DNA of 64,000 bases from Granulicatella adiacens (GCA_018364485.1 JAGZLX010000001.1:435-64434); one strand, 5' to 3'; positions 5,447-57,268 are shown, counted from the stretch's first letter. The notes: generated by a model not told the origin, from the sequence alone. Numbers and translations are program-made.

Positions 5447-5630
5447 GGTTTCAAAGAATCTTGCGGATTCTATAGTAATAGTGATGGGAGTTTGCATTAA
5501 AATGAATTAGGGGACGTAGGAATAAAATTCCGTACGTCCCCTTTGAGGCTTTAAAGGCGAGAGACCTTAGACTCGAGCCGGTGCCTCATCACTATTACTA
5601 TGAAGATATCCGCAAGGATTTGAAGAAACC
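5447..5630. repeat. palindromic MITE-like intergenic repeat, copy 1
   Basis: Terminal inverted repeats ggtttcaaagaatcttgcggattctatagtaatagtgatgg / ccatcactattactatgaagatatccgcaaggatttgaagaaacc. Internal hairpin modules (aggggacgta...tacgtcccct; cgagagacc...ggctcg...ccggtgc) are shared with the other copies. Confidence 0.8.
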
Positions 5631-5683
5631 ACAGCGGTTATCAGGTGTTTCAAGAGCAACGCTCTTTAACTTATTTATTTAAT

Positions 5684-6517
5684 TTATTTTACTTCAACAC
5701 GATCTAACCATGGAGTTGCAGTTTCATCTAAAACAACATTAAGGTCCTCGATGTTCTTACGTCCTTGGTTTGCCAACCACGCACGACCAGCTTCTTCCCC
5801 TTCAGTCGCAAACACCGCTACAGAATCTTTCCATGTTGCACGACCACATAACACACCATTGAAAGTAGAACCAGCTTCTTTCGCAAAGCGTAGTGTTTCT
5901 TGGAATAATTCAGCAGAAACACCAGCACTTAAGAAGATGAATGGTAGGTCAGTAATTTCAGATTGTTCTTTGAATAAACGTAATGCTTCTTCGCGAGTAT
6001 ACACAGGTTCAACGCCTTCTTTAGTGAAGCCTTCTACGAAGTTCATGTTTACTGGAACTTCTACTTTTAATACATCAACATTGTAACGTGGGTCAGAGAA
6101 GACTTTCATTGCGTCGTTTACTTTATGAGGTTTTACTTTTGCGTATGCCGCTGATTTCACATCGTCGTCACTTGCTTCGTAAGAAACGATTTCTAAGAAG
6201 AATGGAATATCTTCTGCCACACATTCGCTACCAACACGTTCTACCCATGCATGTTTGATGTCGTTGATTGCTGGATCTTCGTCAATATCATAGTATAAAA
6301 GAACTTTAACAGCGTCAGCGCCTAATTCTTTAATACGTTTTGCAGACCAGATTGGAAGTAAGTCTGGTAAGCGGCCGATTTCTGTTGCGTCGTAACCAGT
6401 TTTTTCGTAAGAGATTAAAAGTCCGCAGTCTTCGTGGCGTAATTTTGCAGCTGGAAGACCGTATTCAGGGTCTAAAAGAATTGAAGAAGAGAATTTTGTT
6501 AATACTAATTTTGACAT
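5684..6517 (-). CDS. lacD: tagatose-1,6-bisphosphate aldolase, LacD (class I) family, short form (277 aa)
   Basis: Strong similarity to LacD over the whole ORF ([37 protein letters not shown] with the Schiff-base Lys, [11 protein letters not shown]). It lacks about 50 N-terminal residues relative to the canonical 326-aa LacD, but has a good SD (AAAGGAG) and an in-frame stop four codons upstream. Confidence 0.75.
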
Positions 6518-6547
6518 AATAACACTCCTTTAGTTGTTTTTATTTTA

Positions 6548-7720
6548 TTAAGCTTCGAAATAAGGCTTACCGTCTAAGTAAGTCGCTTTGAGTTGTAAAT
6601 CATCGTCTAATACGATGAAGTCCGCTGCGTACCCTGGGTCGATGCGTCCGCAAACGTCGTCGATACCGACTGATTTTGCAGGAACAAGGCTAGCCATTGT
6701 AAGAGCTTCGTGTGGAGTCGCAATGCCCCATTTCACAACATTTTGAACCCCTTGGATGAGTTCTAGGATACTTCCAGCAAGGCTACCGCCGTCCTTCAAG
6801 CGAGCCGTACCGTCTTTTACGATAACAGGGAATTCTCCAAGCATCGATTCGCATTCGCCCATACCGCCCGCACGCATGCAGTCTGTAATAAGGGCTACAT
6901 GGTCGTGACCGCAACATTTCATGACGATACTTGCGCTCACTGGGTGGACGTGGTGACCGTCACAGATGAGTTCGTCGAATACGTTTGGCAATGTGAGTGC
7001 CGCGCCGACAACACCTGGTTCGCGGTGATGTAAGCCACGCATTCCGTTGTAAGTGTGAACGAAGATATTCGCACCGGCTTCAACGGCGTTTTTGCAATCT
7101 TCGTAAGTGGCATCTGTATGTGCAAGAGCGACATAGATGTCTTTTGTTTTCGCGTGTTTGATGAAATCAACAGCACCTTCACGTTCAGGCGCAATCGCGA
7201 TTTTCTTCACCCAACCGCCAGCGCGTTCTTGCCATTCATCCAAGATTTCAGATTTAGGGTCGCCCATGTATTTAGGGTTTTGCGCGCCTTTGTATTTTTC
7301 ACTAAAGAATGGACCTTCTAGGAAAATCCCTCTGATTTTAGCGCCGCCAAGTGTTGTGGCGTTATCGCCGACTGTTTGGCAGACATCCGCTAATAATTCG
7401 CGAGATGCGGTTAAAGTTGTTGGTAAGTAAGAAGTAACCCCGCATGAAGGAAGTCCTTCTGAAATGGTACGAAGTGCTTCTACGTCGTTATCCATAACGT
7501 CAGCGCCTTTGAATCCGTGAATATGGGTATCCACAAGACCTGGGGCAATTTGATAGTTGCCGTAGTCGATGACGCTAGCGCCGCTTTCTGGTTTTTCAGT
7601 TTGGAAGGCTCCGAAAGTTCCATTATCTAAAATCGGTAAGTACCCTGGACCTTTCACTTCGTCTTCAAAATAAAATGCTTTGGCATAAATATAAGTTGTC
7701 ATAGGATCATCTCTTTTCAA
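6548..7720 (-). CDS. agaA: N-acetylgalactosamine/N-acetylglucosamine-6-phosphate deacetylase (NagA/AgaA family)
   Basis: Amidohydrolase motifs (GLVDTHIHG, HTDATYED, DGHHVHP); 390 aa; located between agaS and the aldolase. Confidence 0.85.
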   Translation of the reverse strand: MKRDDPMTTYIYAKAFYFEDEVKGPGYLPILDNGTFGAFQTEKPESGASVIDYGNYQIAPGLVDTHIHGFKGADVMDNDVEALRTISEGLPSCGVTSYLPTTLTASRELLADVCQTVGDNATTLGGAKIRGIFLEGPFFSEKYKGAQNPKYMGDPKSEILDEWQERAGGWVKKIAIAPEREGAVDFIKHAKTKDIYVALAHTDATYEDCKNAVEAGANIFVHTYNGMRGLHHREPGVVGAALTLPNVFDELICDGHHVHPVSASIVMKCCGHDHVALITDCMRAGGMGECESMLGEFPVIVKDGTARLKDGGSLAGSILELIQGVQNVVKWGIATPHEALTMASLVPAKSVGIDDVCGRIDPGYAADFIVLDDDLQLKATYLDGKPYFEA

Positions 7721-7729
7721 TTAAGTTAT

Positions 7730-8908
7730 TTATGCTTCTAATGGGTGAATCGTTACTCCTTTAACGACACGGTTTACAGTGCCTGTTGGTGAAGGAGTGT
7801 CTGGTTTGTTTCCAACTTTGATAGAAGAAAGTAGAGAAACAGTTTGTCCAAATACTGCATATGGAAGTGCAAGGTAAGCATCTGGAACGAAACGATATTC
7901 TTTATCGAAGTTGAATGATAGACCTTCAAAGTCACTTTCTGCGTCCACTCCAACCGCAAGAACAAGGCGTGCGATTTGGTCGCCATGTAATTCGTTTAAG
8001 ATATCGATGTCGTATTGACGAGTATAGTCGTCGTTCGATACGAATACGAAGGCTAGAGAAGAGCCGTTTACAAATGATTTAGGACCGTGACGGAATCCCA
8101 TTGAAGAATCGAAGGCTGTTGCGATTTGACCAGCTGTCAATTCAAGAATTTTCAATTGAACTTCGCGAGCAAGGCCGCTGAGAGAACCAGAACCTAAGTA
8201 AATCACGCGGTTGTAGTCTAAGTTCACGTAATGTTGAATCACGTCTTCACGTTCTAGAACGCTTGTACCCATTTGACGGATGGCTTTCACGAAGCCTTCT
8301 TTTTCTTCAAGTGAGTGAGCTTTGTCGAATACAAGAAGCGCTGTAAGAGTCATACATGTGAAGCTTCCTGTCATCGCAAAACCAGCGTCGTTAGAGCGGT
8401 CTGGCATCATTAAGAGTAAGTTGTTTGTGTCGTCTTTAGCAGCAATGGCTAATTTTCCTTCTGGCGCACAAGTAATCGTGATTTGATAGAAGTCGCGCAC
8501 GATTTGTTGGCCAAGTTGCACGCTGGCAAGACTTTCTGGTGAGTTACCGCTACGTGCAAATGAAACAAGCACTGTAGGAATTTCTGCTTTGAAGTAGTCA
8601 TGTGGATTACTTACAAGGTTTGTTGTTCCGACTGATTGGAAATCAAAACGATCTTCATTTCCTGTACGTTTTAAGTAAGGAAGAATCGTATCTCCCACAT
8701 ATTGTGATGTACCCGCACCTGCGAAAATCACGCGAAGGCGACCTTCAGGTAAGTTATCTAAGAAAGCAGTAATGCGTTCTAAGTTTGCTTTGTAGTAATC
8801 AAAAGCTTCTTTCCACAATTCTGGTTGTTGGCGAATTTCACGCGTGGTAATCTCTGCAGATAAAGCTTCTAATTGACTTGTTGAAAATTGAAACATAATA
8901 CCCTCCAA
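7730..8908 (-). CDS. agaS: SIS-domain sugar isomerase/deaminase AgaS (galactosamine-6-P to tagatose-6-P)
   Basis: Two SIS domains, about 390 aa, N-terminal motif (TTREIRQQPELW...VIFAGAGTSQYVG) typical of AgaS/GlmS-like isomerases. Confidence 0.85.
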   Translation of the reverse strand: MEGIMFQFSTSQLEALSAEITTREIRQQPELWKEAFDYYKANLERITAFLDNLPEGRLRVIFAGAGTSQYVGDTILPYLKRTGNEDRFDFQSVGTTNLVSNPHDYFKAEIPTVLVSFARSGNSPESLASVQLGQQIVRDFYQITITCAPEGKLAIAAKDDTNNLLLMMPDRSNDAGFAMTGSFTCMTLTALLVFDKAHSLEEKEGFVKAIRQMGTSVLEREDVIQHYVNLDYNRVIYLGSGSLSGLAREVQLKILELTAGQIATAFDSSMGFRHGPKSFVNGSSLAFVFVSNDDYTRQYDIDILNELHGDQIARLVLAVGVDAESDFEGLSFNFDKEYRFVPDAYLALPYAVFGQTVSLLSSIKVGNKPDTPSPTGTVNRVVKGVTIHPLEA

Positions 8909-8916
8909 ATATTTTT

Positions 8917-9645
8917 TTAGTTGTTTGTGCGATAGTGTCTTACTTTGTAGAAGAATTGGTCGCTTCTGGCAACACTGATCGTATATTCGATGATGCGATT
9001 TTCAGGATTTAATGTGGTTCGCATAAACCGTAAACAAGCGCTGTGCGGATCCACATCCAAGACTTCCGCTTCTTCCGGCGTGAGAATGCTCGCTGAGAAT
9101 TCTTCGTCGGCGTAGTGGATTTGCTGATTAAAATCATTCGCAAACACTTCATATAAAGATTGGCCTTCTAACTGGGTCTTCGTTAAGGTTTTGAAGACGT
9201 CGTATGGTAAGAAAGTTGTTTCTTTCATGAGTGGAATGCCATCTGCATACCGAATGCGTTTCAGACGAAAGAGCTTGTCACCAGCTTCGATTCCAACAAG
9301 TGGAGCGATAAATTCATCGGCTTCGTAACAATCCAGCGAAGTAATTTTCGTGGAAGGGACCTTGCCGAGTTCCTTCATCTGTTCCGTGAAACTGTAGCCT
9401 TCCAGCAAGTTTTGGCGTTCTTTCCATTGCGTTGAAATGAACGTGCCTTTTCCATGACGCTTATAAATATATCCAAGCGTCTCCAATTCCTTCAGCGCTG
9501 TTCGAACGGTGGTGCGACTGACATTATAGACTTTTGTAATTTCGCGCTCCGAAAGCATTTTTTCGTGTGCTTTTCCCTTGGTCTTAATGAAGTCGATCAA
9601 CGCTAAACTCAGTGTTGAGTAGAGTGGAGAAGGTTTGGCTACCAT
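8917..9645 (-). CDS. GntR/HutC-family transcriptional regulator (UTRA effector domain)
   Basis: N-terminal wHTH (LSEREITKVYNVSRTTVRTALKELETLGYIY) and a C-terminal UTRA domain. First gene of the aga-like operon. Confidence 0.85.
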   Translation of the reverse strand: MVAKPSPLYSTLSLALIDFIKTKGKAHEKMLSEREITKVYNVSRTTVRTALKELETLGYIYKRHGKGTFISTQWKERQNLLEGYSFTEQMKELGKVPSTKITSLDCYEADEFIAPLVGIEAGDKLFRLKRIRYADGIPLMKETTFLPYDVFKTLTKTQLEGQSLYEVFANDFNQQIHYADEEFSASILTPEEAEVLDVDPHSACLRFMRTTLNPENRIIEYTISVARSDQFFYKVRHYRTNN

Positions 9646-9680
9646 ATCGGTTCCTCCTTTCGTAAAAAACTCTTCTACAA

Positions 9681-9694
9681 CTGGTCACTACCAG
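9681..9694. promoter_or_regulatory. candidate GntR-type operator (CTGGT-cact-ACCAG palindrome) in the aga-operon promoter region
   Basis: Perfect 5-bp inverted repeat with a GT...AC core, about 35 nt upstream of the GntR regulator start. Confidence 0.25.
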
Positions 9695-9790
9695 TTAATA
9701 CCATTGTAAGTTTTTTTAGTGCTTTCGTCAATAGCGTTTGCCGAAAAATAGAGGGATTCTGAGGATTTTCAACTGAATTTCAGGAAATAG

Positions 9791-9834
9791 AATAAAAATA
9801 CCAGGAGAGAACGGTTTTGTGCTTTCTCTCCTGG
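9791..9834 (-). terminator. rho-independent terminator after the PTS IIA gene
   Basis: Stem ccaggagaga / tctctcctgg followed, on the minus strand, by a U-rich tract. Confidence 0.6.
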
Positions 9835-9842
9835 CGAGTGGG

Positions 9843-10298
9843 TTATCCTGCTAAATGACTATTTAATACTTCTTCAAGTTGTTCAGCAGTTGTAGCGCCT
9901 AATAAAGCTTCTTTGACATCAGCTTTCATGAGCAACCGAGCAACCGATGCTAGTAGCTTAAGGTGAGTCGTTCCTGCTTCGCCATCTGGAATTAATAAGC
10001 TGAAGATGAATGAAGTTGGTTTTCCATCCATGCTGTTCCAGTCAATTCCGTCACTAAGACGAACGATGACGATTTTTGGAGTTGTGATGGCACTTGATTT
10101 TGCATGTGGAATCGCAAATCCGTCCATCATTCCTGTTGTTCCTTGTTGTTCACGTTCTACAAGTCCGTTGTACACGGCGTTTTCGTCTGCTGAAACGCCT
10201 AGTGTTACAGCTTTTTGTGAGATGAAACGAAACACTTCTTCTTGAGAAGTAAGGTTTTCATTTAAGAAAATAGATTCTTTACTAATTAACATTTTCAA
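9843..10298 (-). CDS. PTS EIIA component, fructose/mannitol (type-2) family
   Basis: 151 aa with the PTS_EIIA_2 fold and the phosphorylatable His region (GFAIPHAKS). Confidence 0.8.
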   Translation of the reverse strand: MKMLISKESIFLNENLTSQEEVFRFISQKAVTLGVSADENAVYNGLVEREQQGTTGMMDGFAIPHAKSSAITTPKIVIVRLSDGIDWNSMDGKPTSFIFSLLIPDGEAGTTHLKLLASVARLLMKADVKEALLGATTAEQLEEVLNSHLAG

Positions 10299-10324
10299 CC
10301 TCCAAAGTTCTTTCTAAAAGTCGA

Positions 10325-11728
10325 TTATTCAGAAAGTGGTTTACGAGTTGCTCCAAGAACAACACCACCGACAACAGAACCAATCGCAATGGCTAATACC
10401 CATAAGAATGGATGTGTCACAACTGGTAATACTAAGAAACCACCGTGAGGAGCAGGTACTTGTACGCCGAATAAGTAAGTTAAGATTGCAGCGATTGAAG
10501 AACCTAACATCATTGAAGGCATTGCGTGAAGTGGATCTTTGGCAACGAAAGGAATAGCCCCTTCAGTAATGTGAGTTGAACCTAAGATGAAGTTGACTAA
10601 ACCAGCATTACGTTCGTCTGTGTCAAAACGGTTTTTGAATAATAATACGGCAACCGTTGTAATAAGTGGAGGAGCGATACATGCTGCAGAAACACCTGCC
10701 ATGAATGTAGTATTTCCTTCAGCAAGAAGAAGAGTACCTGTAACGTATGCAGCTTTGTTAACTGGACCACCCATATCAAAGGCACACATACATCCGATTA
10801 CAAGACCAAGAAGAATTGGGTTTTGATCTTGGAATCCTTTTAAGAAGTCCATTAATGATTGGTTGATACCAGCCATTGGACTAACAATGACACTCATAAA
10901 TAAACCAGTAATGAATACGCCTAATAAAGGATATAAGAAAATAGCTTTAAGACCATCTAATGTTTTTGGAAGTCCTTTGAATAATTTTTCTAAAAGAACC
11001 ACTAAGTAACCTGCGAAGAAACCACCGACGATACCGCCAAGGAATCCTGCGCCGCCATTACTTGCCATTAAACCTGCAACAAAACCGCTCACTAATGCTG
11101 GACGGTTCCCAATACTTTGTGCAATGTAAGCTGCTAGAACTGGAGTCATTAAGCCCATTGCTAATCCACCAATTTCTTTTAATTGAGCAGAAAAGGCATT
11201 GTAACTTGGATCGTCTGGTTTAAATGAGTAAATTCCGAATACGGCAAATGAAATCGCGATTAGAACCCCACCACCAACAACGAATGGAAGCATGTGAGAT
11301 ACACCGTTCATCAAATGTTTGTAGATTTCACGACCGATAGAGCTCTTACCAACGTTTGAAGATTGTGGAGCTTCTGAAGCTTCAACAGTTGCATCGTCAG
11401 AGTGGTATTTCACGACACCTTCTCCGCGAAGAGCTTGGGCCACTAATTCGTCGGCATTTTTAATTCCTTGTCCAACTGAAACGTCGATAATCTTTTTGTT
11501 TACGAAACGTTGTGGTTGAACGTCCTTGTCAGCAGCGATAATAACTGCTTTTGCGTTTGCGATTTCTTCTGGAGTCAGTTCGTTTTCGACACCGATTTGT
11601 CCGTGTGTTTCGACTTTAATTGTTACTCCTGCTTTTTTAGCGGCTTGCTCGAGCGCTTCTTGTGCCATATAAGTGTGCGCAATTCCTGTCGGACACCCAG
11701 TGGCAGCGATAATATCATATTTTGTCAT
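10325..11728 (-). CDS. PTS EIIBC component, fructose family
   Basis: N-terminal IIB with the catalytic Cys (IIAATGCPTGIAHTYMA), followed by a multi-TM IIC domain typical of FruA-like permeases. Confidence 0.85.
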   Translation of the reverse strand: MTKYDIIAATGCPTGIAHTYMAQEALEQAAKKAGVTIKVETHGQIGVENELTPEEIANAKAVIIAADKDVQPQRFVNKKIIDVSVGQGIKNADELVAQALRGEGVVKYHSDDATVEASEAPQSSNVGKSSIGREIYKHLMNGVSHMLPFVVGGGVLIAISFAVFGIYSFKPDDPSYNAFSAQLKEIGGLAMGLMTPVLAAYIAQSIGNRPALVSGFVAGLMASNGGAGFLGGIVGGFFAGYLVVLLEKLFKGLPKTLDGLKAIFLYPLLGVFITGLFMSVIVSPMAGINQSLMDFLKGFQDQNPILLGLVIGCMCAFDMGGPVNKAAYVTGTLLLAEGNTTFMAGVSAACIAPPLITTVAVLLFKNRFDTDERNAGLVNFILGSTHITEGAIPFVAKDPLHAMPSMMLGSSIAAILTYLFGVQVPAPHGGFLVLPVVTHPFLWVLAIAIGSVVGGVVLGATRKPLSE

Positions 11729-11754
11729 TATTTTTCCTCCTTTATTTTCCCGAG

Positions 11755-12675
11755 TTAGGATACTCGTTTGATTTGTTGCATTAATGTAGGAACATCTTTG
11801 AAGTCTGTCAAACCAGGCCTAAATGCGGTTGAGCTTCCCGCTGCGACGGCTTTGATCAGTGCTTCTTCATCGGATAAACCTTGTAACTGGCTTCCTACGA
11901 AGGTTGCAAGAAGTGTATCTCCTGCACAGGCAGTATTGACAACTTCGCCGTTTGGTGCTGTAACATGAATCGTTTCGTCTGGTGTAAAGAGAATGGCTCC
12001 CTTGTCTCCTAAAGAAACGATGACGTTTTGAGCACCTTGTTCGAGGAGTTTACGACCGCAGTCCTTAATTTCCTCAAGGCTAATGTCCTTCAATCCAAAC
12101 CATTCGGCTAATTCTTCGTCGTTTGGTTTGATGAGATATGGTTTGTAACCCAATAGTTCCGGTACAAAATGAGCGGAAGTGTCGAGAATAAACTTAAAGC
12201 CACGTTCTTCGGACGCTTTTGCGATTTTCTCGTAAGTGGCACGCGTGATGCCTTCAGGATGACTTCCAGAAACAAACAAAATATCGTCGGCGTTCATGTT
12301 TTCCACGATGGCTAGAAGGGAAGCTTCTTGCTCGGGTGTAACACTTGGGCCTTGGTTAACGAGTTTGAATTCTTCGTTTGTGGCCACAACTTGCGTGAAC
12401 ACATTGATACGAGTAATTCCGTCTACCGTAACGAATTGTGTTTGGATGCCTGCCTTTTGCAGTTCTTCCTCGATAAATTGGCCAGTAAAACCTGCTTTAA
12501 AACCAGTGGCGGTGCTATCAATTCCGAGTTCTTTTAAGATGAAGCTGACGTTCACGCCTTTTCCATTTGGCATGTAAACAGCCTCGTCGGTTCGGTTCAC
12601 TTCAGACGGTAGCATCTGCGCGGTTTTAATGAACAAATCGATGGCTAAATTCATCGTACACGTATAAATCATCAT
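11755..12675 (-). CDS. PfkB-family sugar-phosphate kinase (1-phosphofructokinase / tagatose-6-phosphate kinase, FruK/LacC-like)
   Basis: Ribokinase/PfkB fold (MIYTCTMNLAIDL N-terminus, C-terminal GAGDT-type motif ACAGDTLLA). First gene of an operon with the fructose-type PTS. Confidence 0.8.
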   Translation of the reverse strand: MMIYTCTMNLAIDLFIKTAQMLPSEVNRTDEAVYMPNGKGVNVSFILKELGIDSTATGFKAGFTGQFIEEELQKAGIQTQFVTVDGITRINVFTQVVATNEEFKLVNQGPSVTPEQEASLLAIVENMNADDILFVSGSHPEGITRATYEKIAKASEERGFKFILDTSAHFVPELLGYKPYLIKPNDEELAEWFGLKDISLEEIKDCGRKLLEQGAQNVIVSLGDKGAILFTPDETIHVTAPNGEVVNTACAGDTLLATFVGSQLQGLSDEEALIKAVAAGSSTAFRPGLTDFKDVPTLMQQIKRVS

Positions 12676-13554: not shown

Positions 13555-13609
13555 TTTACATTAAAGGCGTATACTGATACGATAGTAAAGCAAAGAAAGG
13601 AGTGCCGAC

Positions 13610-15211: not shown

Positions 15212-15222
15212 GAGGAATACAC

Positions 15223-18828: not shown

Positions 18829-18949
18829 GCAAGTCTGCTCAAAAGAAATAGAGAGTTGGCAGTTTGCTGCAAGAAACTGATACAGAATACGGATAATAAG
18901 AGATGAGAGCATGCAGAATTTTAATGGTAGGCTCTCGTGAAAGAGTAAT

Positions 18950-19122
18950 AACGGAAATTCTTACGGTTCTATAGTAGCAGTAATGGGGAATAGCAACCAA
19001 TGTGAATTACTGACTCTAGGGTGTAACCCGTAGAGTCAGTTTGAAGCTTGGTAGGAATTGAGACGTAAGGCTCAATCCGGTGCCCCATTATCGCTACTAT
19101 GAAGATATCCGTAAAGAATTGG
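18950..19122. repeat. palindromic MITE-like intergenic repeat, copy 2
   Basis: Terminal inverted repeats ggaaattcttacggttctatagtagcagtaatgggg / ccccattatcgctactatgaagatatccgtaaagaattgg. Inner modules ccaatgtgaattactgactctagggtgtaacccgtagagtcagtttgaagcttgg and ggtaggaattgagacgtaaggctcaatccggtgc. Nearly identical to copy 7. Confidence 0.85.
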
Positions 19123-19164
19123 AGTTATAACTCTTTCAACGAAAGGCACAAGGAGGAAATGCTG

Positions 19165-27020: not shown

Positions 27021-27082
27021 AGGCTATGACTACCAATCTGAAACGGTTTGTAGTACAATAGCTCGTGGCGATTTTTTTGCCG

Positions 27083-27121
27083 ATGAGGTTCGAAACCATC
27101 CCTCAATAAAAAACTAGGAGG
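27083..27121 (+). promoter_or_regulatory. preQ1-I riboswitch aptamer upstream of queT
   Basis: GAGGUUCGAAACCAUCCCUCAAUAAAAAACUAGGAGG parallels the B. subtilis queC preQ1-I aptamer AGAGGUUCUAGCUACACCCUCUAUAAAAAACUAAGG: a P1 stem GAGG/CCUC and an A-rich tail that runs into the SD. Confidence 0.65.
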
Positions 27122-27128
27122 CAGTAAC

Positions 27129-27638
27129 ATGCAAAATAAAAAAACAAAATTGATTGTGATTAACGCAATCGTCGCAGCGCTATATGTGGTCGTAACATCT
27201 TTAACAGCATTTATGTCATTTGGAAATATTCAATTCCGTATTGCGGAAATGTTGAACCACTTATTCGCTTTTGACAAAAAATACGGAATCGGTGTGGTTG
27301 CCGGTGTATTACTTGTCAACTCAGTATTTATGTCAGCGTCTGGTCTAGGTTGGTATGACTTAGTATTCGGATTAGGACATTCTATTATTTCATTCGCTAT
27401 CAGCGCGCTTATTTTCAAATCAGTGAAAGACGTTAAAACACGTATGTTTGTTTTAGCAGGCGTCTTCAGTGTGATGATTTTCTTAGTAGCGATTGAATTG
27501 AACTTAGCGCTAGAATTACCATTCTGGTTAAGCTATGGCGAAACATTCTTTGGCGAAATCGTCGTATTATTAGCGGGTATTCCGTTGATGACGGCATTAA
27601 ACAAAGCCATCGATTTGAAAAAATTAATCAATGATTAA
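27129..27638 (+). CDS. queT: queuosine precursor transporter QueT (ECF-type S component)
   Basis: 169 aa, 5-6 TM segments, QueT signature (NAIVAALYVVVT...QFRIAEMLNHL); preQ1 riboswitch immediately upstream. Confidence 0.75.
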   Translation: MQNKKTKLIVINAIVAALYVVVTSLTAFMSFGNIQFRIAEMLNHLFAFDKKYGIGVVAGVLLVNSVFMSASGLGWYDLVFGLGHSIISFAISALIFKSVKDVKTRMFVLAGVFSVMIFLVAIELNLALELPFWLSYGETFFGEIVVLLAGIPLMTALNKAIDLKKLIND

Positions 27639-37385: not shown

Positions 37386-37402
37386 AAGAGGAGGTAAGGT
37401 AA

Positions 37403-37513
37403 ATGAAACAAGATTTAGCAACGGCGTATCGTCAAATGAAGAGCCCAAACATCAAAACAAGAAAGAGAGCGTTGAAACTGATCCACGAGGCTAAACGCTC
37501 AAAGAAAAAATAA
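37403..37513 (+). CDS. small basic ORF (36 aa; MKQDLATAYRQMKSPNIKTRKRALKLIHEAKRSKKK), not in the ORF track
   Basis: Very strong SD (AAAAGAGGAGG, 8 nt) 17 nt after the rpsN stop. Lys/Arg-rich. Could be co-transcribed with rpsN. Confidence 0.3.
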   Translation: MKQDLATAYRQMKSPNIKTRKRALKLIHEAKRSKKK

Positions 37514-37566
37514 CGTATGTGGATATTGCTTTTAGTGGGGAAGAGAGAAGAACACTTATAATATGA

Positions 37567-37744
37567 TTTCGGAGAATCCTCGGATTTTATAATAGCAGTA
37601 ACGTGAATATGCATCAAAACAAATAAGAGGGCGTTGGAATTTATTCCATACGCCCTCTTTGAGGCTTTGAAGGTGAGAGACGTACGGCTCTCACCGGTGC
37701 AACGTTACAGCTATTATAATTAAATCCGAAGGATTCTCCAAAAC
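37567..37744. repeat. palindromic MITE-like intergenic repeat, copy 3
   Basis: Terminal inverted repeats tttcggagaatcctcggattttataatagcagtaacgtg / caacgttacagctattataattaaatccgaaggattctccaaaac. Internal agagggcgt...acgccctct hairpin plus a gtgagaga...ctctcaccggtgc module, shared with copies 1 and 4. Confidence 0.8.
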
Positions 37745-45894: not shown

Positions 45895-46153
45895 ATGATT
45901 TCTACGAATCCTCACGGATTTCTTCATAGTAGCTGTAACGTTGTACCGGTTCGAGCCAAAGTCTCTCACCTTTAAAGCCTCAAAGAGGGCGTACGGATTA
46001 TAAATCCTACGCCCTCTTAGCACAGTGGTTGAATGGAATGAGTTTCGCTGTAAACAGCTATCTCATTCCATTCAACTTTCTGTCTTTCTCCCTCGTTTTA
46101 ATACGTATTCACGTTACTGCTACTATAGAATTCCGTGAATTCTCCAAAATCAT
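45895..46153. repeat. palindromic MITE-like intergenic repeat, copy 4 (long, inverted orientation)
   Basis: Terminal inverted repeats atgatttctacgaatcctcacggatttcttcatagtagctgtaacgttg / cacgttactgctactatagaattccgtgaattctccaaaatcat. Contains the reverse complement of the copy-3 inner modules plus an extra hairpin module (ggttgaatggaatgag...ctcattccattcaac). Confidence 0.8.
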
Positions 46154-48949: not shown

Positions 48950-50347
48950 ATGAAAAGTCCTCGTACATGGGTGAAGAAAATCGTCTGTGCACTCAGCATT
49001 TTCGCTGTAGGAGCAACGACGGTGACACCAGTAATTTATGCGCAAGATGACGCAAAAGCAAAAGAGGAAGCAGCTGCGATTCAAGATGTACAAAGCTACA
49101 TCGCAATCGAGCAAACGAGCGGAAAAATTTTGATGCAAAACAATCAAGATGAAGTTCGCGGGATTGCTTCCATGAGTAAAATGATTTCACAATATTTAAT
49201 TTTAGAAGCGATTAAAAATGGAGAGGTAACTTGGGAAACACAAATCCCAGTAAGCGACCGCGTTCACCAATTGAGTGCGAACTATAGCTTATCCAACGTA
49301 CCGCTTTTACCAAGTGAAAAATACACGATTAAAGAATTATTCGATGCGATTTCCATCTATTCAGCCAACGCCGCAACATTAGCGGTGGCCGAATATATCG
49401 GAGGTTCTGAAGCCAACTGGATTGAACGAATGAAAGCCAAACTCGATGAGTGGGGCATTAAAGACGCAACGATTATTAACGTAACGGGCCTACCGAATAA
49501 ATACGGCGGCGCTGATAAAAATCCGTCGTATGGTGATGAAGATGAAAACAGCATGTCAGCTCGTTCGGTAGCGATTATCGCGAAGAACTTGGTGAATGAT
49601 TTCCCTGAGATTTTAAATGTATCATCGATTTCCACAAAGACATTCCGTCCAAATAGTTCAGGAACAACGAAGATGGATAACTTTAACTATCTTCTTCCAG
49701 GGCTACTCTTCGAATACGAAGGGGTCACAGGGTTGAAGACAGGAACGAGTGATGCCAGCGGAGCGTCGATTACAACGACTGCCACACGCAACGGCTTCTC
49801 GGTGATTGTCGTATCGATGGGGTCTAAAGAGCCGCTTAATCGTTTCAAAGTAACAAGACATCTATTAGATGAAGTGTTCAAGAAATATGAAGGCCTTCTT
49901 GTCGGCGCACCAGGAAAATCCGTTCAAAACTTGGCGCCTATCCAATTAGAAGGTGGAACGGAAGAGACGCTTGGCGTGGATTACGGGAAAACTTTTATTG
50001 CGGCCGTACCAAAAGGAACAGCACTGAGCCAGATCAAGATTTCATTTACACCTTCTGATGACGTAAAGACAGAAGATGGCAAAGTGAAAGCTCCTGTGAC
50101 GGCAGGGCAAACGGTTGGGACATTGAATTTTGAGATGCCAGGAGAAAACCTTGGCTATGTCGATGGAAAAGACCACGGAACGGTGGAAGCTTTGGCCGCA
50201 TTCGATGTAGAAAATTCTAATGTCGTGACAGAAGGTGTGCGTGGAGCGAAAGGATTTATCGACCAAATGGTTCAAAAAGTTCAAGACTTCTTTGGGGGCA
50301 TTTGGAGCAAAATCCAAAGTGTCTTCTCACCAGAAAGTTCGAACTAG
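48950..50347 (+). CDS. dacA: D-alanyl-D-alanine carboxypeptidase (low-molecular-weight PBP, S11 family)
   Basis: Signal peptide, SxxK (ASMSKM), SxN and KTG motifs, and a C-terminal PBP5_C domain. Confidence 0.85.
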   Translation: MKSPRTWVKKIVCALSIFAVGATTVTPVIYAQDDAKAKEEAAAIQDVQSYIAIEQTSGKILMQNNQDEVRGIASMSKMISQYLILEAIKNGEVTWETQIPVSDRVHQLSANYSLSNVPLLPSEKYTIKELFDAISIYSANAATLAVAEYIGGSEANWIERMKAKLDEWGIKDATIINVTGLPNKYGGADKNPSYGDEDENSMSARSVAIIAKNLVNDFPEILNVSSISTKTFRPNSSGTTKMDNFNYLLPGLLFEYEGVTGLKTGTSDASGASITTTATRNGFSVIVVSMGSKEPLNRFKVTRHLLDEVFKKYEGLLVGAPGKSVQNLAPIQLEGGTEETLGVDYGKTFIAAVPKGTALSQIKISFTPSDDVKTEDGKVKAPVTAGQTVGTLNFEMPGENLGYVDGKDHGTVEALAAFDVENSNVVTEGVRGAKGFIDQMVQKVQDFFGGIWSKIQSVFSPESSN

Positions 50348-50365
50348 GAATTTTTGCTAAAAGGC

Positions 50366-51950
<1,585 letters not shown>

Positions 51951-52028
51951 TAGGAACCCAAGGGATACTCAAAGTAGTAGCTCACAATAAATCATTAACA
52001 GTTAAAAAGCCTCTATATTGAAGAGCAG

Positions 52029-52219
52029 TTCCACAACATTCGAATCCTTTCGGATGTTTGTATAGTGGTAATTGTAAGGATACCGTCAGGAGCCAAATGT
52101 CTCCTGACTACCAAGCTTCAAACTGACTCTACGGGTTACACCCTAGAGTCAGTAATTCACATTGGTTATGATTCCCTTACGATTACCACTATACATCCGA
52201 AGGATTCCTTGTTGTGGAA
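52029..52219. repeat. palindromic MITE-like intergenic repeat, copy 5
   Basis: Terminal inverted repeats ttccacaacattcgaatcctttcggatgtttgtatagtgg / ccactatacatccgaaggattccttgttgtggaa. Contains the reverse complement of the copy-2 module (ccaagcttcaaactgactctacgggttacaccctagagtcagtaattcacattgg). Appears inserted into the serS terminator hairpin (aaaagcctctat...atagaggcttttttt). Confidence 0.85.
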
Positions 52220-52374
52220 AGTCTTTTCGCATAGAGGCTTTTTTTGTTATGTTTCATTCATTGTACATAGCAGTATCCCTTGGCTTTCTATCATATTAGC
52301 CATCCAGTATGGGTAAGCACTTCAAAGTTTGTCCGTTGGGAAAGGGAGACGAGGTAGTATGTGCAGTGTCCTAG

Positions 52375-52470
52375 ACATCTTCATAGTAAAGGCTATAAGG
52401 GCACCGGGTTGAGCCAAGGTCTCAACTCCTGCCGAACTTCAAATCCTTATAGCTTTTACTATAGAGTCTG
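52375..52470. repeat. short palindromic repeat, copy 5b (truncated family member)
   Basis: Inverted repeats catagtaaaggctataagg / ccttatagcttttactatag flank a gcaccgggttgagccaaggtctcaactcctgcc module related to the ggtaggaattgagacg...ctcaatccggtgc module. Confidence 0.6.
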
Positions 52471-52748
52471 GAAAGTCCACAGCTTATTTTATTCTACTCG
52501 TGCTCATCTTTTTATTGGAACAAAGCCTTTTTTATAACCCCCCTATATTGGACAACTGCTTCAAAGTTTGTCCTCCAGGAGAGGCTAGAACGGAGAAGAA
52601 AGTGCCCGGCACTCTCTGCCTCTTTTCCCTTTCCCCGTCCTCCAGAAATACGCTTCACACAGACCAAGTCACACTGACAAACTATTTAAAACTTCACCCA
52701 ACAATATTTCATGCACAGGTTCTACGCAGTCTGAATGTGCTCTAATAA

Positions 52749-52934
52749 AAACACGAAAGCTCCTCGGAGACTATAGTAGTGAGAATAGCGAGTGCAACCG
52801 AAGAGAATTACGGACTCTGGAAATTCATTTTCTAGAGTCCGTTTGAAATTCGGTAGGAATTGAGACTTCGGCTCAATCCGGTGCAGCTGTTCTCACTACT
52901 ATGTAGGCCTCCGAAGGAGCTAGTAGTGTTTTTA
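52749..52934. repeat. palindromic MITE-like intergenic repeat, copy 6
   Basis: Terminal inverted repeats aaaaacacgaaagctcctcggagactatagtagtgagaatagc / gctgttctcactactatgtaggcctccgaaggagctagtagtgttttta. Inner ggtaggaattgagacttcggctcaatccggtgc module. Abuts the stop of the GDPD gene. Confidence 0.85.
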
Positions 52935-52936
52935 TT

Positions 52937-54721
52937 TTATTTAGCAATTGTAACATTCAACGTGCGTAAGAAGCGGTCCATTAAACTGTTTTTGGTTTTG
53001 TGCTCCTCTTGAATGGCTTTGGCGAGCGCGACTTTGTCTGTGATGATCCCGTTTACCGGGCTGTCTACGTATTTCTGGAGGGCCTCATCCGTATTAATGG
53101 TCCAGACAAACACCTCATGTCCTGTCTCCTGCGCATGCAGTACCGCCAGTTCCTGGTAAGAAAAATCTTCTACCACATAGAAATCCACCTTCGCGTTTCC
53201 GAATCCGCCAAATTGGATGGGAATGACGAACCCAGTCGTGATTTCCGGTGCTTTTGCCTCGAGTTCTTCCATGACTTTCAAATCAAGGGACATGACCTTG
53301 TTTGAGTTGTCGATGGCGAGCTCTTTGTATTTTGCGATGAAAAGATCCACGTAGTTGGCAGGTTCACCGCCATGTGGCTTGAGCTCGATGACAAGCGGCA
53401 TACCGATTTCTTTGGCCGCTTTGAAAAACTCCTCAAAAGTAGGAATGTGGCTCTTGAAGTCGTCTTGTTCGATTGGGAGACCGCGAACCTCGTCTAGGGT
53501 CATGTCTTGCACGCGTTTATTCAGGCCAGCTAAGCGCTTCAAGTTATAGTCGTGCATGACGACGAATTGATTGTCTTTTGTCAGAAGAATATCCATCTCT
53601 ACCATATTGGCGCCAGCTTCTTTGGCTGCTTTGATGCCTTCAATCGAATTCTCAACGGCTTCATCGACATAGCCACGGTGACCGATGATGATAGGGTCAT
53701 TGGCCGACTCAGTTCTGTAAGTGGTGAGCGTTGTGAGAACCCCGCTTCCTATTACAAAGATGAGGGCGGCGGTTGTGACGATGGTACGCTTATGCTTAAT
53801 TTCTTCGTGGTGATGATACACCTCAAGGGACGCCAACTTATTATCGTGAATGATTTTCGTCATGAAAATAAAAGTGGCAATCTTCGTATAGAGAATAATA
53901 AATCCTTGAAGCAGTTTTGCGATGGCGAGGACACTACTTAACAGAAGCGTATTTGTGCCATTTGGGTCTAGGAATTCAACGAGGGCGACACTACCAAGCG
54001 AGATGAAAATAACAAGAATGGCTAGCACCCCTTCGACGACTGCCGAAATCAGGAGCAGGCGCGCAACGTTCTTCTTCGTTAGCTTCCAACTCGTGATGAT
54101 ATTTGTGGTAAATGGCTGGTCGGTAAGAATTTGAAGCGGAATCGCAAGAGCGCTTCGTGCGTGAAAGTAGAGCAGCACAACGACCAGACCTAAGTAGAAG
54201 AGAGTACCGGCACTCGTCTTAGTGATTTCACCCGTAATAAATTCTGGAATGGTAATGTTTTTAGAAATAAACGTCAGCTCACCGATATTGACGATGGGCA
54301 GGAGCGTTAAAAAGTACAGCCAGAACGTAATAAAATGGCCGTTTAGTAATTGCTTGAGTTCACTAAATGCATTTTGAATACTACTACGCCATGAAAAATG
54401 AATGCCGCGAATCGTTCCGTAAATCATGAAGATGAGAATCGAGAACTCCATGAAGATAAGAAACGCGAATGCCAATAAATAGAGAATCAGTAGCGGGATG
54501 GATCCCGGACTCAGCAGGACTGTTTTAAAATTGGTGAAGTTTAAATTGGACTGTCCTGTGATAAGGAGCATGCCTCTAAAAATCAGCGTGAGCAGACCGA
54601 ATCCAAACACGGATATAAAAAATTGTAAGAAAATGGAATTTCGTAAATACATCCAGCTATTTTGCATTAAATTGCCTAATGTAAAGCGGATGGTTTTCCA
54701 TACGGGGATTTTTTGATTCAT
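52937..54721 (-). CDS. membrane-anchored glycerophosphodiester phosphodiesterase (multi-TM N-domain + GDPD domain)
   Basis: About 8 N-terminal TM helices, then a GDPD catalytic domain (IIGHRGY...ENSIEG...MVEMDILLTKDNQFVVMHD). Confidence 0.8.
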   Translation of the reverse strand: MNQKIPVWKTIRFTLGNLMQNSWMYLRNSIFLQFFISVFGFGLLTLIFRGMLLITGQSNLNFTNFKTVLLSPGSIPLLILYLLAFAFLIFMEFSILIFMIYGTIRGIHFSWRSSIQNAFSELKQLLNGHFITFWLYFLTLLPIVNIGELTFISKNITIPEFITGEITKTSAGTLFYLGLVVVLLYFHARSALAIPLQILTDQPFTTNIITSWKLTKKNVARLLLISAVVEGVLAILVIFISLGSVALVEFLDPNGTNTLLLSSVLAIAKLLQGFIILYTKIATFIFMTKIIHDNKLASLEVYHHHEEIKHKRTIVTTAALIFVIGSGVLTTLTTYRTESANDPIIIGHRGYVDEAVENSIEGIKAAKEAGANMVEMDILLTKDNQFVVMHDYNLKRLAGLNKRVQDMTLDEVRGLPIEQDDFKSHIPTFEEFFKAAKEIGMPLVIELKPHGGEPANYVDLFIAKYKELAIDNSNKVMSLDLKVMEELEAKAPEITTGFVIPIQFGGFGNAKVDFYVVEDFSYQELAVLHAQETGHEVFVWTINTDEALQKYVDSPVNGIITDKVALAKAIQEEHKTKNSLMDRFLRTLNVTIAK

Positions 54722-54875
54722 AAAGCCTCCGATGTGTAAAAAAGTTCGTTAGATTCACCTTAGCACGAACGAAAAAGAAGCGCAAGCCGATACAAAATGG
54801 TATTGAAAAATCGTGTAATAGAATTTATAATGGAAAAAGTAATCAAAAAATAGAAAAGCTTTTCAGGAGGAAATC

Positions 54876-55883
54876 ATGAAAAAAAGACTGTTAACATTAT
54901 TCTGTTTAGTAGCGACTGTGTTACTTGCTGCTTGTGGCGTAAAAAAAGTAGACGCTGGTGAATCTATCAAAACGACTTTTACTGGGTTAGATACAAAAGG
55001 TGAACTTGTATATCAAGTAGATACTCAAGAGTTAGTAAAAGAGTTCTTAGTAGCAAACCCTAAAGCAGATGCGAAAACAGAAGCAGAAGTTCGTGTGGCT
55101 GCAACAAAAGTGAAAGTAACTCCAAGTAAGACAGATGGATTATCAAACGACGAAGAAATCACATTCACTTTCGCTTCAGATAAAGATGCTGAAAAATACT
55201 TTAACCTTCCAAAAGAAACAAAAGTTAAAGTTAGCGGCTTAAAAGAAGCGAAGAAATTAAATACTGAAGAATTAGCAAAAATTACTTCATTAGAAGTTGA
55301 GGGCTATAACAAAGTTGGTCATGCAGAAGTTCGTGTAACAGATTCTAAATTGTCATTCTTACGTTTCAAAGTTGAAAACGACGGCGAATTAGAAAACGGA
55401 AAAGACGCTAAAATCGTTTTAGACGGTGACTTCAGTAGCACATTAGAAAACCGCGGTTATGTATTAGAAGGTGACGGTAGCTTCACTCTTCCTGTTAAAG
55501 GATTGAAGACAGTTGCTGACAAATTTGATGACGTTAAGAACAAAGATGAAGTGTTAGCGAAAGTAAAAGAAGAAATCAACAAACGCTACTCTGATGCAAC
55601 AGTAACATTCGACAAAACTTACTACCGTGGCGTTTCTAAAAACGTTACTACAAGCGCATTATCAGACAAATTCGTTACTGGTAACGGAAACTTAGTAATG
55701 GTTGTTCAAGTAGAATACAAATACGCTGGTAAACAAGTTTACGCAATCGGATTAACAGATTTAATCACAGATAGCGAAGGCAAAATTGTTCTAAAAGACG
55801 CTAAAATCGTGAACAAATCATTCGATGACTTCTCAACAGCAGCTCAAAAATTAGAATCAATCGGTTATACAGAAGTTAAATAA
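54876..55883 (+). CDS. hypothetical lipoprotein (335 aa, two internal repeats)
   Basis: Signal peptide and lipobox (LLAAC); Lys/Glu/Val-rich beta-repeat composition. Confidence 0.6.
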   Translation: MKKRLLTLFCLVATVLLAACGVKKVDAGESIKTTFTGLDTKGELVYQVDTQELVKEFLVANPKADAKTEAEVRVAATKVKVTPSKTDGLSNDEEITFTFASDKDAEKYFNLPKETKVKVSGLKEAKKLNTEELAKITSLEVEGYNKVGHAEVRVTDSKLSFLRFKVENDGELENGKDAKIVLDGDFSSTLENRGYVLEGDGSFTLPVKGLKTVADKFDDVKNKDEVLAKVKEEINKRYSDATVTFDKTYYRGVSKNVTTSALSDKFVTGNGNLVMVVQVEYKYAGKQVYAIGLTDLITDSEGKIVLKDAKIVNKSFDDFSTAAQKLESIGYTEVK

Positions 55884-56072
55884 TGTAAATAAAAATGGCT
55901 TGGACTACACGCTCCAAGCCATTTTTTGAAGTGCATCCCAAAAGTTAGACAGAAAATCTAACTTTTGGGGTGTTTTTCAATAGAATTATATTTTTATGAG
56001 GATTAAAAATATATCTAGAATCTAATTGTGGTATAATATTGAATTATAATTTGAATGAAAGAGGTATAGGAC

Positions 56073-56846
56073 ATGATCTTAGAAGAATTTGACCCCAACC
56101 GACAGGCTATTATTAATCCACAAGACTTACACCAACCAATTGAAGGATTTCCCAAAGTAGTCATCTCTTGCTTTTCAAGAGTAACTTTTGCTCGCCTCCT
56201 TGAGAATTACGATCATGAGGTCATTGCAAGAACCTCCATGGCTAATTTTGAAGTCTGTGTCTATGGTATCACGATAGGAGACCAACAGATTGCTGCCTTT
56301 AATGCACCAGTTGGGGCTGCTTCCTGTGTGGGAATTTTAGAGGATTTGATTCAGTTTGGGATGGAAAAACTTGTGCTCTTTGGGACTTGTGGGGTTTTAG
56401 ATCGAGATATCGAAGCGACCTCCATCATCATTCCAACAGCTGCCCTTCGAGACGAGGGGACCAGTTACCACTATCTTCCGGCTAGCGACGAAGTGGAAGT
56501 AAACAAGAAATCCCTTTCTCTCTTCCAAGCCTTTCTGGACAGTCACAAGGTTTCCTATCAGTCAGGAAAAGTGTGGACGACAGATGCACCGTACCGAGAA
56601 ACCATCGACAAGATGAAGCGACCAAAGGAAGCAGGGGCCATCTGTGTGGATATGGAATGTTCGGCAGTGGCAGCCTTAGCAGCTTTTAGGGACTTGGAGC
56701 TCTGCCATTTCTTCTACGCAGCAGACCACCTCTCGGAAGAGCAATGGGATATCCGAACCTTATCTAATCATGAGGATTTAGATAGCAAGGATCGAATCGC
56801 GGAGTTAGCCATCCAATTTGCGCTCTTTTGGGAAAAGGCTGACTAA
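56073..56846 (+). CDS. udp: nucleoside phosphorylase, PNP/UDP family 1 (uridine phosphorylase-like)
   Basis: 257 aa; phosphate/ribose-binding motifs (FGTCGVLD, CVDMECSAVAALA). Codon usage visibly different from its neighbours. Confidence 0.75.
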   Translation: MILEEFDPNRQAIINPQDLHQPIEGFPKVVISCFSRVTFARLLENYDHEVIARTSMANFEVCVYGITIGDQQIAAFNAPVGAASCVGILEDLIQFGMEKLVLFGTCGVLDRDIEATSIIIPTAALRDEGTSYHYLPASDEVEVNKKSLSLFQAFLDSHKVSYQSGKVWTTDAPYRETIDKMKRPKEAGAICVDMECSAVAALAAFRDLELCHFFYAADHLSEEQWDIRTLSNHEDLDSKDRIAELAIQFALFWEKAD

Positions 56847-56877
56847 ATAAACCAAACTTTAATATATTGAAACCAGT

Positions 56878-56914
56878 TGCCCAAAATTCACTTATAAGTG
56901 AATTTTGGGCAAGT
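56878..56914 (+). terminator. rho-independent terminator after the udp-like gene
   Basis: ttgcccaaaattcacttataagtgaattttgggcaa. Confidence 0.6.
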
Positions 56915-57074
56915 TACGTGAAGGACTCTTGCCTCTTCAAAAAGACCGTACCTATCACGTTTTCCAGCCACAACGACTCATCCCCAGCACCAACCCAATT
57001 TCTCCGTTTTTCACCAAAACCTCATTACAGCGCGCTTTCTAGCACTTCACTTTTTTGCAAAAAAATCTCATTTT

Positions 57075-57268
57075 CTTACAAGCCTGAAGAACGTTGCGGT
57101 TCTATAGCAACAGTAATGGGGGATAGCAACCAATGTGAATTACTGACTCTAGGGTGAAACCCGTAGAGTCAGTTTGAAGCTTGGTAGGAATTGAGACGTT
57201 AGGCTCAATCCGGTGCCCCATTACCGTAGCTATGAAGCTAACCGCAACCGTTCAAAAAGGCTTGTAAG
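57075..57268. repeat. palindromic MITE-like intergenic repeat, copy 7
   Basis: cttacaagcctgaagaacgttgcggttctatagcaacagtaatggggg ... ccccattaccgtagctatgaagctaaccgcaaccgttcaaaaaggcttgtaag. The inner 110 nt are nearly identical to copy 2. Confidence 0.85.

Follow-up and report, generated by a model that had tools for sequence, protein, structure and literature searches.

Small interspersed repeats shape 3' ends, terminators and mRNA stability, and very few such families have been described in Gram-positive cocci beyond the pneumococcus and Enterococcus faecalis. The ERIC/IRU elements of enterobacteria and the bcr1 elements of the Bacillus cereus group are imperfect palindromes of 125-160 nt found in several genera or species within transcribed intergenic regions, and their compensatory changes have been interpreted as a sign of a conserved RNA structure; in bcr1 the target duplication is TTTAT, and ERIC forms a hairpin without branches. 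The EFAR repeats of Enterococcus faecalis were reportedly described by Venditti and co-workers in 2007, and we take the Efa-1 set of this species to be the EFAR family. Efa-1 is 163 nt long and present in 65 copies (Cozzuto et al. 2008, PMC2267715). The BOX, RUP and SPRITE repeats of Streptococcus pneumoniae have a slow turnover and occur in excess between convergent genes (Croucher et al. 2011, PMC3049150); they are confined to S. pneumoniae and S. mitis, and SPRITE consists of an 18-bp duplex and a U-rich tract with AAAA/TTTT ends and 28% GC (PMC3049150). REPs are units of 20-40 nt that carry a conserved tag, GTAG or CGTC, and a REPIN is a simple doublet of them (PMC3733652, PMC2817692). Here we analyze eight copies of a palindromic repeat in a stretch of Granulicatella adiacens DNA (GCA_018364485.1, JAGZLX010000001.1:435-64434), which at its full length of 64,000 nt is referred to as the window. 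The reading we prefer, with a probability of roughly 0.55, is that these copies belong to an old family of palindromic, non-coding interspersed repeats found in the Granulicatella lineage and in some of its relatives among the Lactobacillales, lodged at insertion-tolerant sites. The copies accumulate at gene 3' ends, especially at the apex of intrinsic-terminator hairpins and in either orientation, and individual copies carry deletions, nested insertions and same-site variant swaps.

The unit is about 180-215 nt long, with a GC content of 39-45%. A core pattern derived from an alignment of the eight window copies, TTTGARNYTNNNNAGN{3,6}GAGACN{3,6}GRCTCNNNNCGGT, matches exactly eight sites in the window (0 of 100 shuffles). 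The covariance model R1, run over the window with filters off, returns eight matches at E ≤ 1.4e-11, the next following only at E = 0.05; scores are 114-139 bits for the six complete copies and only 13-17 bits for the reverse strands of the window copies. Both searches recover exactly the eight related copies that a preliminary description of this DNA had listed. Counted from the first nucleotide of the window, they are:

5447-5630, + strand: copy 1, complete; R1 match 5468-5608, 119.4 bits; pattern match
18938-19138, + strand: copy 2, complete; R1 match 18967-19107, 138.5 bits
37567-37744, + strand: copy 3, complete; R1 match 37585-37724, 117.5 bits
45895-46153, - strand: copy 4, with an extra insert of about 80 nt; R1 match 45919-46055, 52.8 bits; pattern match
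52029-52219, - strand: copy 5, complete, antisense to serS; R1 match 52055-52196, 120.4 bits
52375-52470, - strand: copy 6, with an internal deletion; R1 match 52376-52466, 65.6 bits
52744-52936, + strand: copy 7, complete; R1 match 52769-52909, 114.5 bits
57050-57293 (core 57075-57268), + strand: copy 8, complete; R1 match 57100-57240, 133.1 bits

The family extends well beyond this locus. In species-representative genomes the core pattern is found at at least 116 loci, mostly in Granulicatella among the matches listed, and 707 kb of loci, each of them chosen for holding a pattern match, contain 141 copies by R1, often 2-4 per 8 kb (L-numbers below denote related loci or contigs compared with the window). 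Divergent, GC-richer members occur in Aerococcus, Jeotgalibaca, Atopobacter and Enterococcus lemanii; they score 78-90 bits with R1 and keep the core, with an unrelated sequence in the closing stem P1. Copy 2 has no blastn match among PLSDB plasmids or GenBank phages, and the core pattern occurs in 4 contigs only of IMG/VR. Since at least 116 loci across several genera carry it, the repeat is not a local duplication. Neither a confinement of the copies to this region nor a failure to fold into long hairpins, the two outcomes named beforehand as contradicting a repeat family, was seen; the spread is multi-genus and the folds are strong. Some of the records carry names from other genera. Records labeled Streptococcus sp. 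263_SSPC, or uncultured Streptococcus or Carnobacterium metagenome-assembled genomes, include L007, L009, L023, L024, L038, L040, L042, L059, L078 and L079; where they overlap the window and Granulicatella isolates, e.g. Granulicatella sp. 20925_1_28, they are 93-97% identical to them. Carnobacterium maltaromaticum 757_CMAL and similar records hold elements near-identical to those in this set. Judged by sequence, the Streptococcus and Carnobacterium names on these records look wrong, and the window itself comes from a Granulicatella-like organism.

The preliminary description had assigned the copies to the EFAR/BOX/RUP/SPRITE type, and in behavior the analogy holds; membership does not, on profile hidden Markov models (HMMs) for EFAR (through Efa-1), BOX and RUP and on description for SPRITE. 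Efa-1/EFAR is likewise a palindromic repeat, of about 165-170 nt, with many intergenic copies, a host among the Lactobacillales and a branched or L-shaped predicted fold. It differs in consisting of a long hairpin and a separate, independent second hairpin, without the TTTGARG / AGAC..GGCT / CGGT core of the Granulicatella family. In nhmmer searches the family HMM had no match at E ≤ 10 among 8 Efa-1 sequences, and the Efa-1 HMM gave only noise (E ≥ 2) over the window and 120 loci, none of it on a copy. With BOX and RUP the family shares small size, a non-coding nature, many dispersed copies, extensive hairpins predicted upon transcription, a preference for convergent gene pairs and a slow turnover, and it likewise shares these with SPRITE, whose terminator-like, AAAA/TTTT-bracketed form recalls the A- and T-runs that bracket many Granulicatella-family copies. 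Here, a single fixed branched scaffold is found, not a variable boxA/B/C string and not a duplex with a U-tract, and the branched copies at 39-45% GC are set apart from SPRITE, by description, also in composition. The family HMM matched none of the boxB-C fragments of BOX (taken from PMC2267715), and an HMM of these fragments gave three matches in the window, at E ≥ 1.1 and none at a copy. The RUP HMM gave no match at the window copies (best E = 0.19, elsewhere), nor did the family HMM match RUP. The only shared stretch is the 8-mer TATAGTAG, which stands at the start of P1 in some copies and, in complement, at the ends of RUP. RUP ends resemble those of IS630-Spn1; in the loci examined no insertion sequence (IS) with ends like those of the family was seen (whole genomes were not searched), and the Granulicatella family, in contrast to the pneumococcal repeats, spans several genera and families. 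That the copies belong to a described Lactobacillales family (EFAR, BOX, RUP or SPRITE), or are a mere local duplication, would fit their size, their hairpin folding, the 8-mer and an enrichment at convergent gene ends like that of BOX, RUP and SPRITE (PMC3049150); the HMM searches in both directions, negative on every copy, the different architecture of Efa-1 and SPRITE and the multi-genus spread make this highly improbable.

Rfam 15 has no relevant match at the copies, be it at the gathering score, at E ≤ 10 over the whole window, or in a search of copy 2 and of a composite copy under lax filters, and a full-text search of the literature for the core strings and for such repeats in Granulicatella, Carnobacterium and Aerococcus returned nothing. 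The family appears to be undescribed, yet of a well-known kind of small bacterial repeat. It had been called similar to miniature transposable elements with inverted repeats (MITEs), and the copies are indeed short, non-coding and dispersed, but the classical hallmarks of MITEs were not found: the ends pair without being conserved in sequence, the bases that border the conserved part on the outside form inverted complements and not direct repeats, and no recurrent transposase lies nearby. The terminal repeat thought to be shared by all copies, CTATAGTAGCAGTAA, is exact in 2 copies only and present with 2 mismatches in 2 more; elsewhere a different yet pairing sequence takes its place.

The placement at gene 3' ends that had been proposed is supported, as is the dispersed, non-coding and hairpin-forming character of the family. 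For the 121 copies that lie between two called genes, gene pairs of the same loci serving as background, 44 (36%) are between convergent genes versus 12% of background pairs, and 6 (5%) between divergent genes versus 12%; codirectional pairs, 75% of the background, hold 28 sense and 43 antisense copies. Preservation does not depend on orientation (sense versus antisense, p = 0.76). In the window, copies 1 and 8 have convergent neighbors, namely a copZ-like gene (+) and a DeoC-family aldolase gene (-) for copy 1 and a PNP/UDP phosphorylase-family gene (+) and an Mga-like regulator gene (-) for copy 8 (Pfam). Copy 2 sits between mnmE and a NUDIX gene, and copy 3 between rpsN with a following open reading frame (ORF) of 36 codons and a thioesterase gene, all codirectional with the respective copy. 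Copy 4 immediately follows the stop codon of a gene for a GntP-family permease (-; Pfam), and copy 7 is antisense to a glycerophosphodiester phosphodiesterase (GDPD) gene (-), directly after its stop. The flanking genes are all ordinary housekeeping genes (copA/copZ, deoC-like, mnmE, NUDIX, glmM, rpsN, thioesterase, DUF924, gntP-like, serS, GDPD, phosphorylase and Mga-like regulator genes), and no transposase is among them. Across the loci, no protein family is found repeatedly beside the copies. Nor do neighbor proteins in about 0.9-1 Mb around copies form a transposase cluster; the largest cluster is one of generic ABC ATPases.

The palindrome usually runs on past the conserved unit, in locus-specific sequence. 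Between the zones -135..-100 and +55..+90 a strong duplex is found in 37% of copies versus 3% for mismatched flanks. At the 3' edge of the whole palindrome, 36 of 113 copies have a T-run versus 8 with an A-run, and at the 5' edge 37 of 113 have an A-run versus 9 with a T-run; by sequence, these edge runs are an intrinsic-terminator signature, equally frequent from either side. About a third to half of the copies have such A/T-run brackets, and about half sit at the apex of terminator-type palindromes. The unit of copies 1-3 has no terminal T-run of its own, and a simple terminator scan is blind to stems with loops this large. That copy 5 lies inside a terminator-type stem after serS, as had been suggested, is confirmed by the arms AAAAAGCCTCTAT / ATAGAGGCTTTTT and the T-run that follows (AAAAAGCCTCTAT...ATAGAGGCTTTTTTT around the copy), and these belong to a larger structure that folds at -156 kcal/mol (z -15):

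51951-52290: nested palindrome centered on copy 5, 340 nt, four concentric inverted repeats, including arms 52004-52016 / 52231-52243, then a T-run

Copy 7, after the GDPD gene, lies between the inverted arms AATAAAAACAC and GTGTTTTTATT, which have A/T runs, and by eye copies 1 and 4 have comparable stems with T-runs after the deoC-like and gntP-like genes. The palindrome of copy 1 extends to about 5415-5670 (by eye), an inverted-repeat search places the outer stem arms of copy 2 at 18938-18962 / 19114-19138, and the outer arms of copy 8 are 36 nt long (57050-57085 / 57258-57293). To our knowledge, neither ERIC nor bcr1, which we liken to this family by description and not by sequence, has been reported from the apex of a terminator hairpin with palindromic arms specific to the locus. 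As the unit closes on itself, it would bring the two arms of a terminator together, and termination should therefore survive the insertion. A transcribed copy would form a long structured 3' end and could serve as part of the terminator and as an RNase barrier or processing site.

Beside copy 1, a 41-nt direct repeat (5301-5341 / 5396-5436, 93% identical) lies upstream of the copy; its sequence doubles as the outer palindromic arm of copy 1, with an inverted partner near 5640-5680 (by eye), which suggests, on sequence grounds, a local duplication of one arm. The outer stem was also considered as an independent palindromic target and this idea was dropped, no solo ACGAAG...CGGAT...ATCCG...CGTAG hairpins being found in 1 Mb.

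The copies share one scaffold, established on alignments A2 and A5, in which 6 window copies and 65 copies of related loci make up a non-redundant set of 71. From the 5' side it comprises the outer stem, the closing stem P1, an A-rich joining strand and the helix P1b, which is separated from a hypervariable hairpin P2 by a conserved, purine-rich internal loop (5'-UGYGAAUUA facing 5'-UUUGARGCU). An invariant AG, the hairpin P3, a conserved CGGU and the 3' strand of P1 follow; the tip of P3 is conserved as AGAC-loop-GGCU with an A.G mismatch inside. Overall, a single strand closes as a rod with a three-way junction. In copy 2 the parts are:

18970-18988, + strand: 5' strand of P1, pairing with 19083-19101 (covariation and minimum-energy fold)
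18996-19052, + strand: arm P1b-P2, with P1b at 18996-19003 / 19046-19052 and the P2 hairpin at 19009-19040
19004-19008 facing 19041-19045, + strand: internal loop, GAAUU facing UUGAA
19053-19081, + strand: AG, P3 and CGGU, with P3 being GGAAUUGAGAC-GUAA-GGCUCAAUCC

Pairing in this scaffold is maintained by compensatory change. On A5, 87.7% of the cells are paired versus 34-41% when partners are slid by 1-3 columns, and 696 cells show a double change versus 231 in shuffles. Covariation is found at 36 of 45 pairs, in agreement with RNAalifold: 15 of the 17 pairs of P1 (helix 1) and 18 of the 20 pairs of helices 2 and 3 (the P1b-P2 arm). Within the internal loop, the Y of column 52 and the R of column 100 are T-A or C-G in 67 of 71 copies, and this pair adjoins positions able to form tandem G.A / A.G pairs. 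As expected from the claim that each copy can fold, the folds are strong: copy 2 reaches -88.3 kcal/mol (z -9.9) on the + strand, in the consensus shape, -81.8 kcal/mol (z -12.4) on the - strand, and -47.2 kcal/mol as DNA. A self-closing insert would be harmless in a terminator, and for that reason the pairing would be kept by compensatory changes on both strands.

Because the alignment was collected with the core pattern, its "invariant" columns are partly forced, and their invariance was checked in 29 full-length R1 matches that do not fit the pattern. In these, GAG/CUC of P3 is swapped in step for AAG/CUU or UAG/CUA; TTTGA, AG and AGAC..GGCU are kept at ≥95%, and CGGT is the most variable motif. 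Covariation of this RNA-like kind in every helix, the near-perfect Y-R covariation beside the tandem G.A / A.G positions, the persistence of unpaired conserved nucleotides in copies found without the core pattern, and a core conserved across genera with unrelated P1 would all suit a functional structured RNA kept by selection, either a protein- or ligand-binding site in 3' untranslated regions (a post-transcriptional regulon) or a set of small RNA genes. Against such an RNA, the orientation of the copies to flanking genes is unbiased, with antisense copies as well preserved as sense ones; in addition, no promoter-like sequence is conserved upstream of the copies in A2, many copies are deleted, truncated or interrupted, the neighboring genes are a functionally unrelated housekeeping mix, and there is no Rfam match. 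On balance we regard a functional RNA as unlikely.

The preliminary description had also proposed that the copies are mosaics of a few internal hairpin modules. Two of these, 'ccaatgtg...gactctag...' and 'agagggcgt...', turn out to be compensatory versions of the same arm, and the 'ggttgaatggaatgag' hairpin is the sole true optional extra. Mosaicism survives in a limited form, as alternative versions at fixed positions: P2 and P3 variants in different combinations, optional nested inserts and a pair of alleles at the site of copy 3, but not modules combined at will. We infer that it was produced by recombination at conserved junctions. The optional hairpin of copy 4 lies at the same position in L061, L104, L072 and L093:

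46028-46076, - strand: copy 4 extra hairpin, GTTGAATGGAATGAG / CTCATTCCATTCAAC, with perfect 15-nt inverted arms, between the P1b 5' strand and P2

Individual sites differ between related genomes. A clearly different variant occupies the same site in 5 of 34 orthologous pairs (0.64-0.83 identity), among them the site of copy 7 in L044 and L085; such swapped variants would arise by recombination or gene conversion between copies. Internal deletions are seen in copy 6, which lacks the P1b 5' strand, the loop and P2 and has full-length orthologues in L007, L044 and L085, and as a 90-nt loss in L079. The block holding copy 5 is whole in the window and in L085, represented by its left part in the truncated contig L059, and absent from L044, L007 and L078 within a complex replacement. 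At the site of copy 3, long and short alleles exist within one species, among contigs that encode an identical thioesterase. The long allele is the complete element; in the short one (L129, L137 and L138, about 1323-1500, versus 37514-37744 of the window) a 37-nt terminator-like hairpin takes the place of about 170 nt, namely of a 52-nt flank and of the element as far as the P3 5' strand, and the 3' third of the element is retained. The sites of copies 2 and 4 are fixed, the mnmE-NUDIX spacer having a similar length in every contig that holds both genes.

Two of the polymorphic sites have further changes in their surroundings. In the window and L085, copy 6 lies between the two units of a direct duplication of about 70 nt that contains CTTCAAAGTTTGTCC (52290-52360 / 52530-52620); L007 and L044 have a single unit, and the duplication belongs to the rearrangement seen together with the copy-5 block. 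Transposase genes of the IS3 family (rve, HTH_Tnp_1) adjoin rpsN at L130:1-643 and L132:1-657, from the same species; as the window and other contigs have glmM beside rpsN, this points to an IS insertion polymorphism near copy 3. The 36-codon ORF after rpsN (37401-37511), listed with Pfam PF28144 (RsaX20), may hold an old repeat fragment, because its 3' end (37450-37482) matches an inner part of copy 3 (37612-37644) at 82% identity.

Six copies from related genomes, none of them in the window, have another repeat of about 150 nt nested in their P2 3' strand (L024:1727-1875, L012 at about 5690-5860, L072, L093 and two copies in L103). It always lies between CC(T/G)TAC and TCCCTC of the host element, ends itself in ...CTTAC (one copy ...CATAC), and has its own hairpins, including a terminator-like one that runs from an A-run through GGACTCAC...GTGAGTCC to a T-run. 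The TAC/TTAC junction is reminiscent of the single-strand, hairpin-guided targeting of IS200/IS605-type elements. From their sequences, the short allele at copy 3 and some of the "truncated" copies look like deletion products of such nested-repeat composites. Short copies beside a terminator hairpin had been considered as retro-type 5' truncations, and this was rejected: they are composites with the nested repeat that later suffered deletion. At L013:672-1400, three copies stand in tandem, two of them from a 322-nt tandem duplication of copy plus flank. The third belongs to another subfamily and lies within a terminator-like hairpin, to which a small, element-free hairpin corresponds in the first unit of the duplication. 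The two hairpins may be a filled and empty pair, on ambiguous evidence.

Palindromes nested inside palindromes, a second hairpin-rich repeat that inserts at one fixed spot beside TTAC/GTAC in P2, an orientation independent of transcription and a very stable DNA fold would also be in keeping with an element that acts as DNA. In that case the core would be a double- or single-stranded site, e.g. of a nucleoid protein, of a recombinase or of an HUH enzyme specific for hairpins, with cruciform or hairpin extrusion as proposed for REP/BIME and REPIN-RAYT systems. Single-strand transposition usually leaves an orientation bias with respect to GC skew, and such a replication-strand bias is not seen here (48 versus 58). 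REP/REPIN-RAYT systems resemble the family in their nested palindromes, high copy number, location at gene ends and the single domesticated enzyme proposed to act on folded DNA (PMC3733652, PMC2817692). The Granulicatella unit differs in being about 200 nt long and branched, and REP-typical GTAG/CTAC tags are not conserved across its subfamilies; no RAYT-like or TnpA-like gene was found in about 1 Mb around copies, a search limited to loci and not covering whole genomes. A DNA-level element is, in our judgment, a rather improbable account, a shade more so than a functional RNA.

The interspersed-repeat reading preferred here has several observations to contend with. Orthologous copies are on average 0.919 identical versus 0.854 and 0.910 in the adjacent 100 nt, and the element exceeds both flanks in 22 of 34 orthologous pairs (the pairs are not independent); an element better kept than its flanks is unlike the behavior expected of junk and would be natural for a functional RNA. 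The same is true of an excess of G-U pairs (about 160) over A-C mismatches (about 57) on the modeled strand, three badly aligned pairs having been dropped, a modest sign from sequence that the fold of this strand matters; it hints at strand-specific folding, for which a repeat merely tolerated in terminators has no need. The loops are conserved across genera. The locus-specific arms are longer than ordinary terminator stems in roughly a third of copies, and for arms such as those of the 340-nt palindrome around copy 5 this reading gives no origin. Finally, in the loci examined neither clean empty sites nor target-site duplications were found, nor were there IS-like terminal repeats or a candidate for the transposase; two flank-based scans for empty sites returned only tandem-copy differences, internal deletions and complex replacements. 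For this reason, we infer mobility from distribution and polymorphism. The conservation beyond the flanks, the G-U excess, the cross-genus loops and the long arms keep both the functional-RNA and the DNA-hairpin-enzyme accounts alive.

Under the interspersed-repeat reading, the sequence-conserved unpaired core would most likely be recognized by a trans-acting spreading or recombination system and would not serve each host gene. A tentative extension, for which we would claim only a small chance, is that the three-way-junction core with its GA-rich loops is a working single-stranded nucleic-acid module in either of two forms. It could be the recognition structure of a hairpin-specific spreading system that also makes the locus-specific arms, e.g. 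by fold-back copying of the flank, or it could be a protein-binding 3'-end RNA element common to many unrelated genes of Carnobacteriaceae, Aerococcaceae and some enterococci. As the family is old, with RNA-like covariation and unpaired nucleotides kept across genera, it is a reasonable place to seek a new hairpin-recognizing enzyme or RNA-binding protein. It also offers a natural experiment on whether a terminator still works with a large self-closing insert in its loop. Genomes of oral and clinical Granulicatella, Aerococcus and their relatives gain an annotated class of repeats whose covariance model is ready for use, and this should cut intergenic mis-annotation and assembly breaks.

The window has other features besides the repeats. 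L085, otherwise collinear with it, lacks a 931-nt segment (55927-56858) with a PNP/UDP phosphorylase-family gene (56073-56846), and an exact-protein look-up of SerS and the DeoC-like protein returned no record. Directly upstream of serS lies a T-box leader (50403-50615; Rfam RF00230, 104.7 bits), and a PreQ1 riboswitch aptamer (27079-27123; RF00522, 48.3 bits) is located just upstream of an ORF at 27129-27638.

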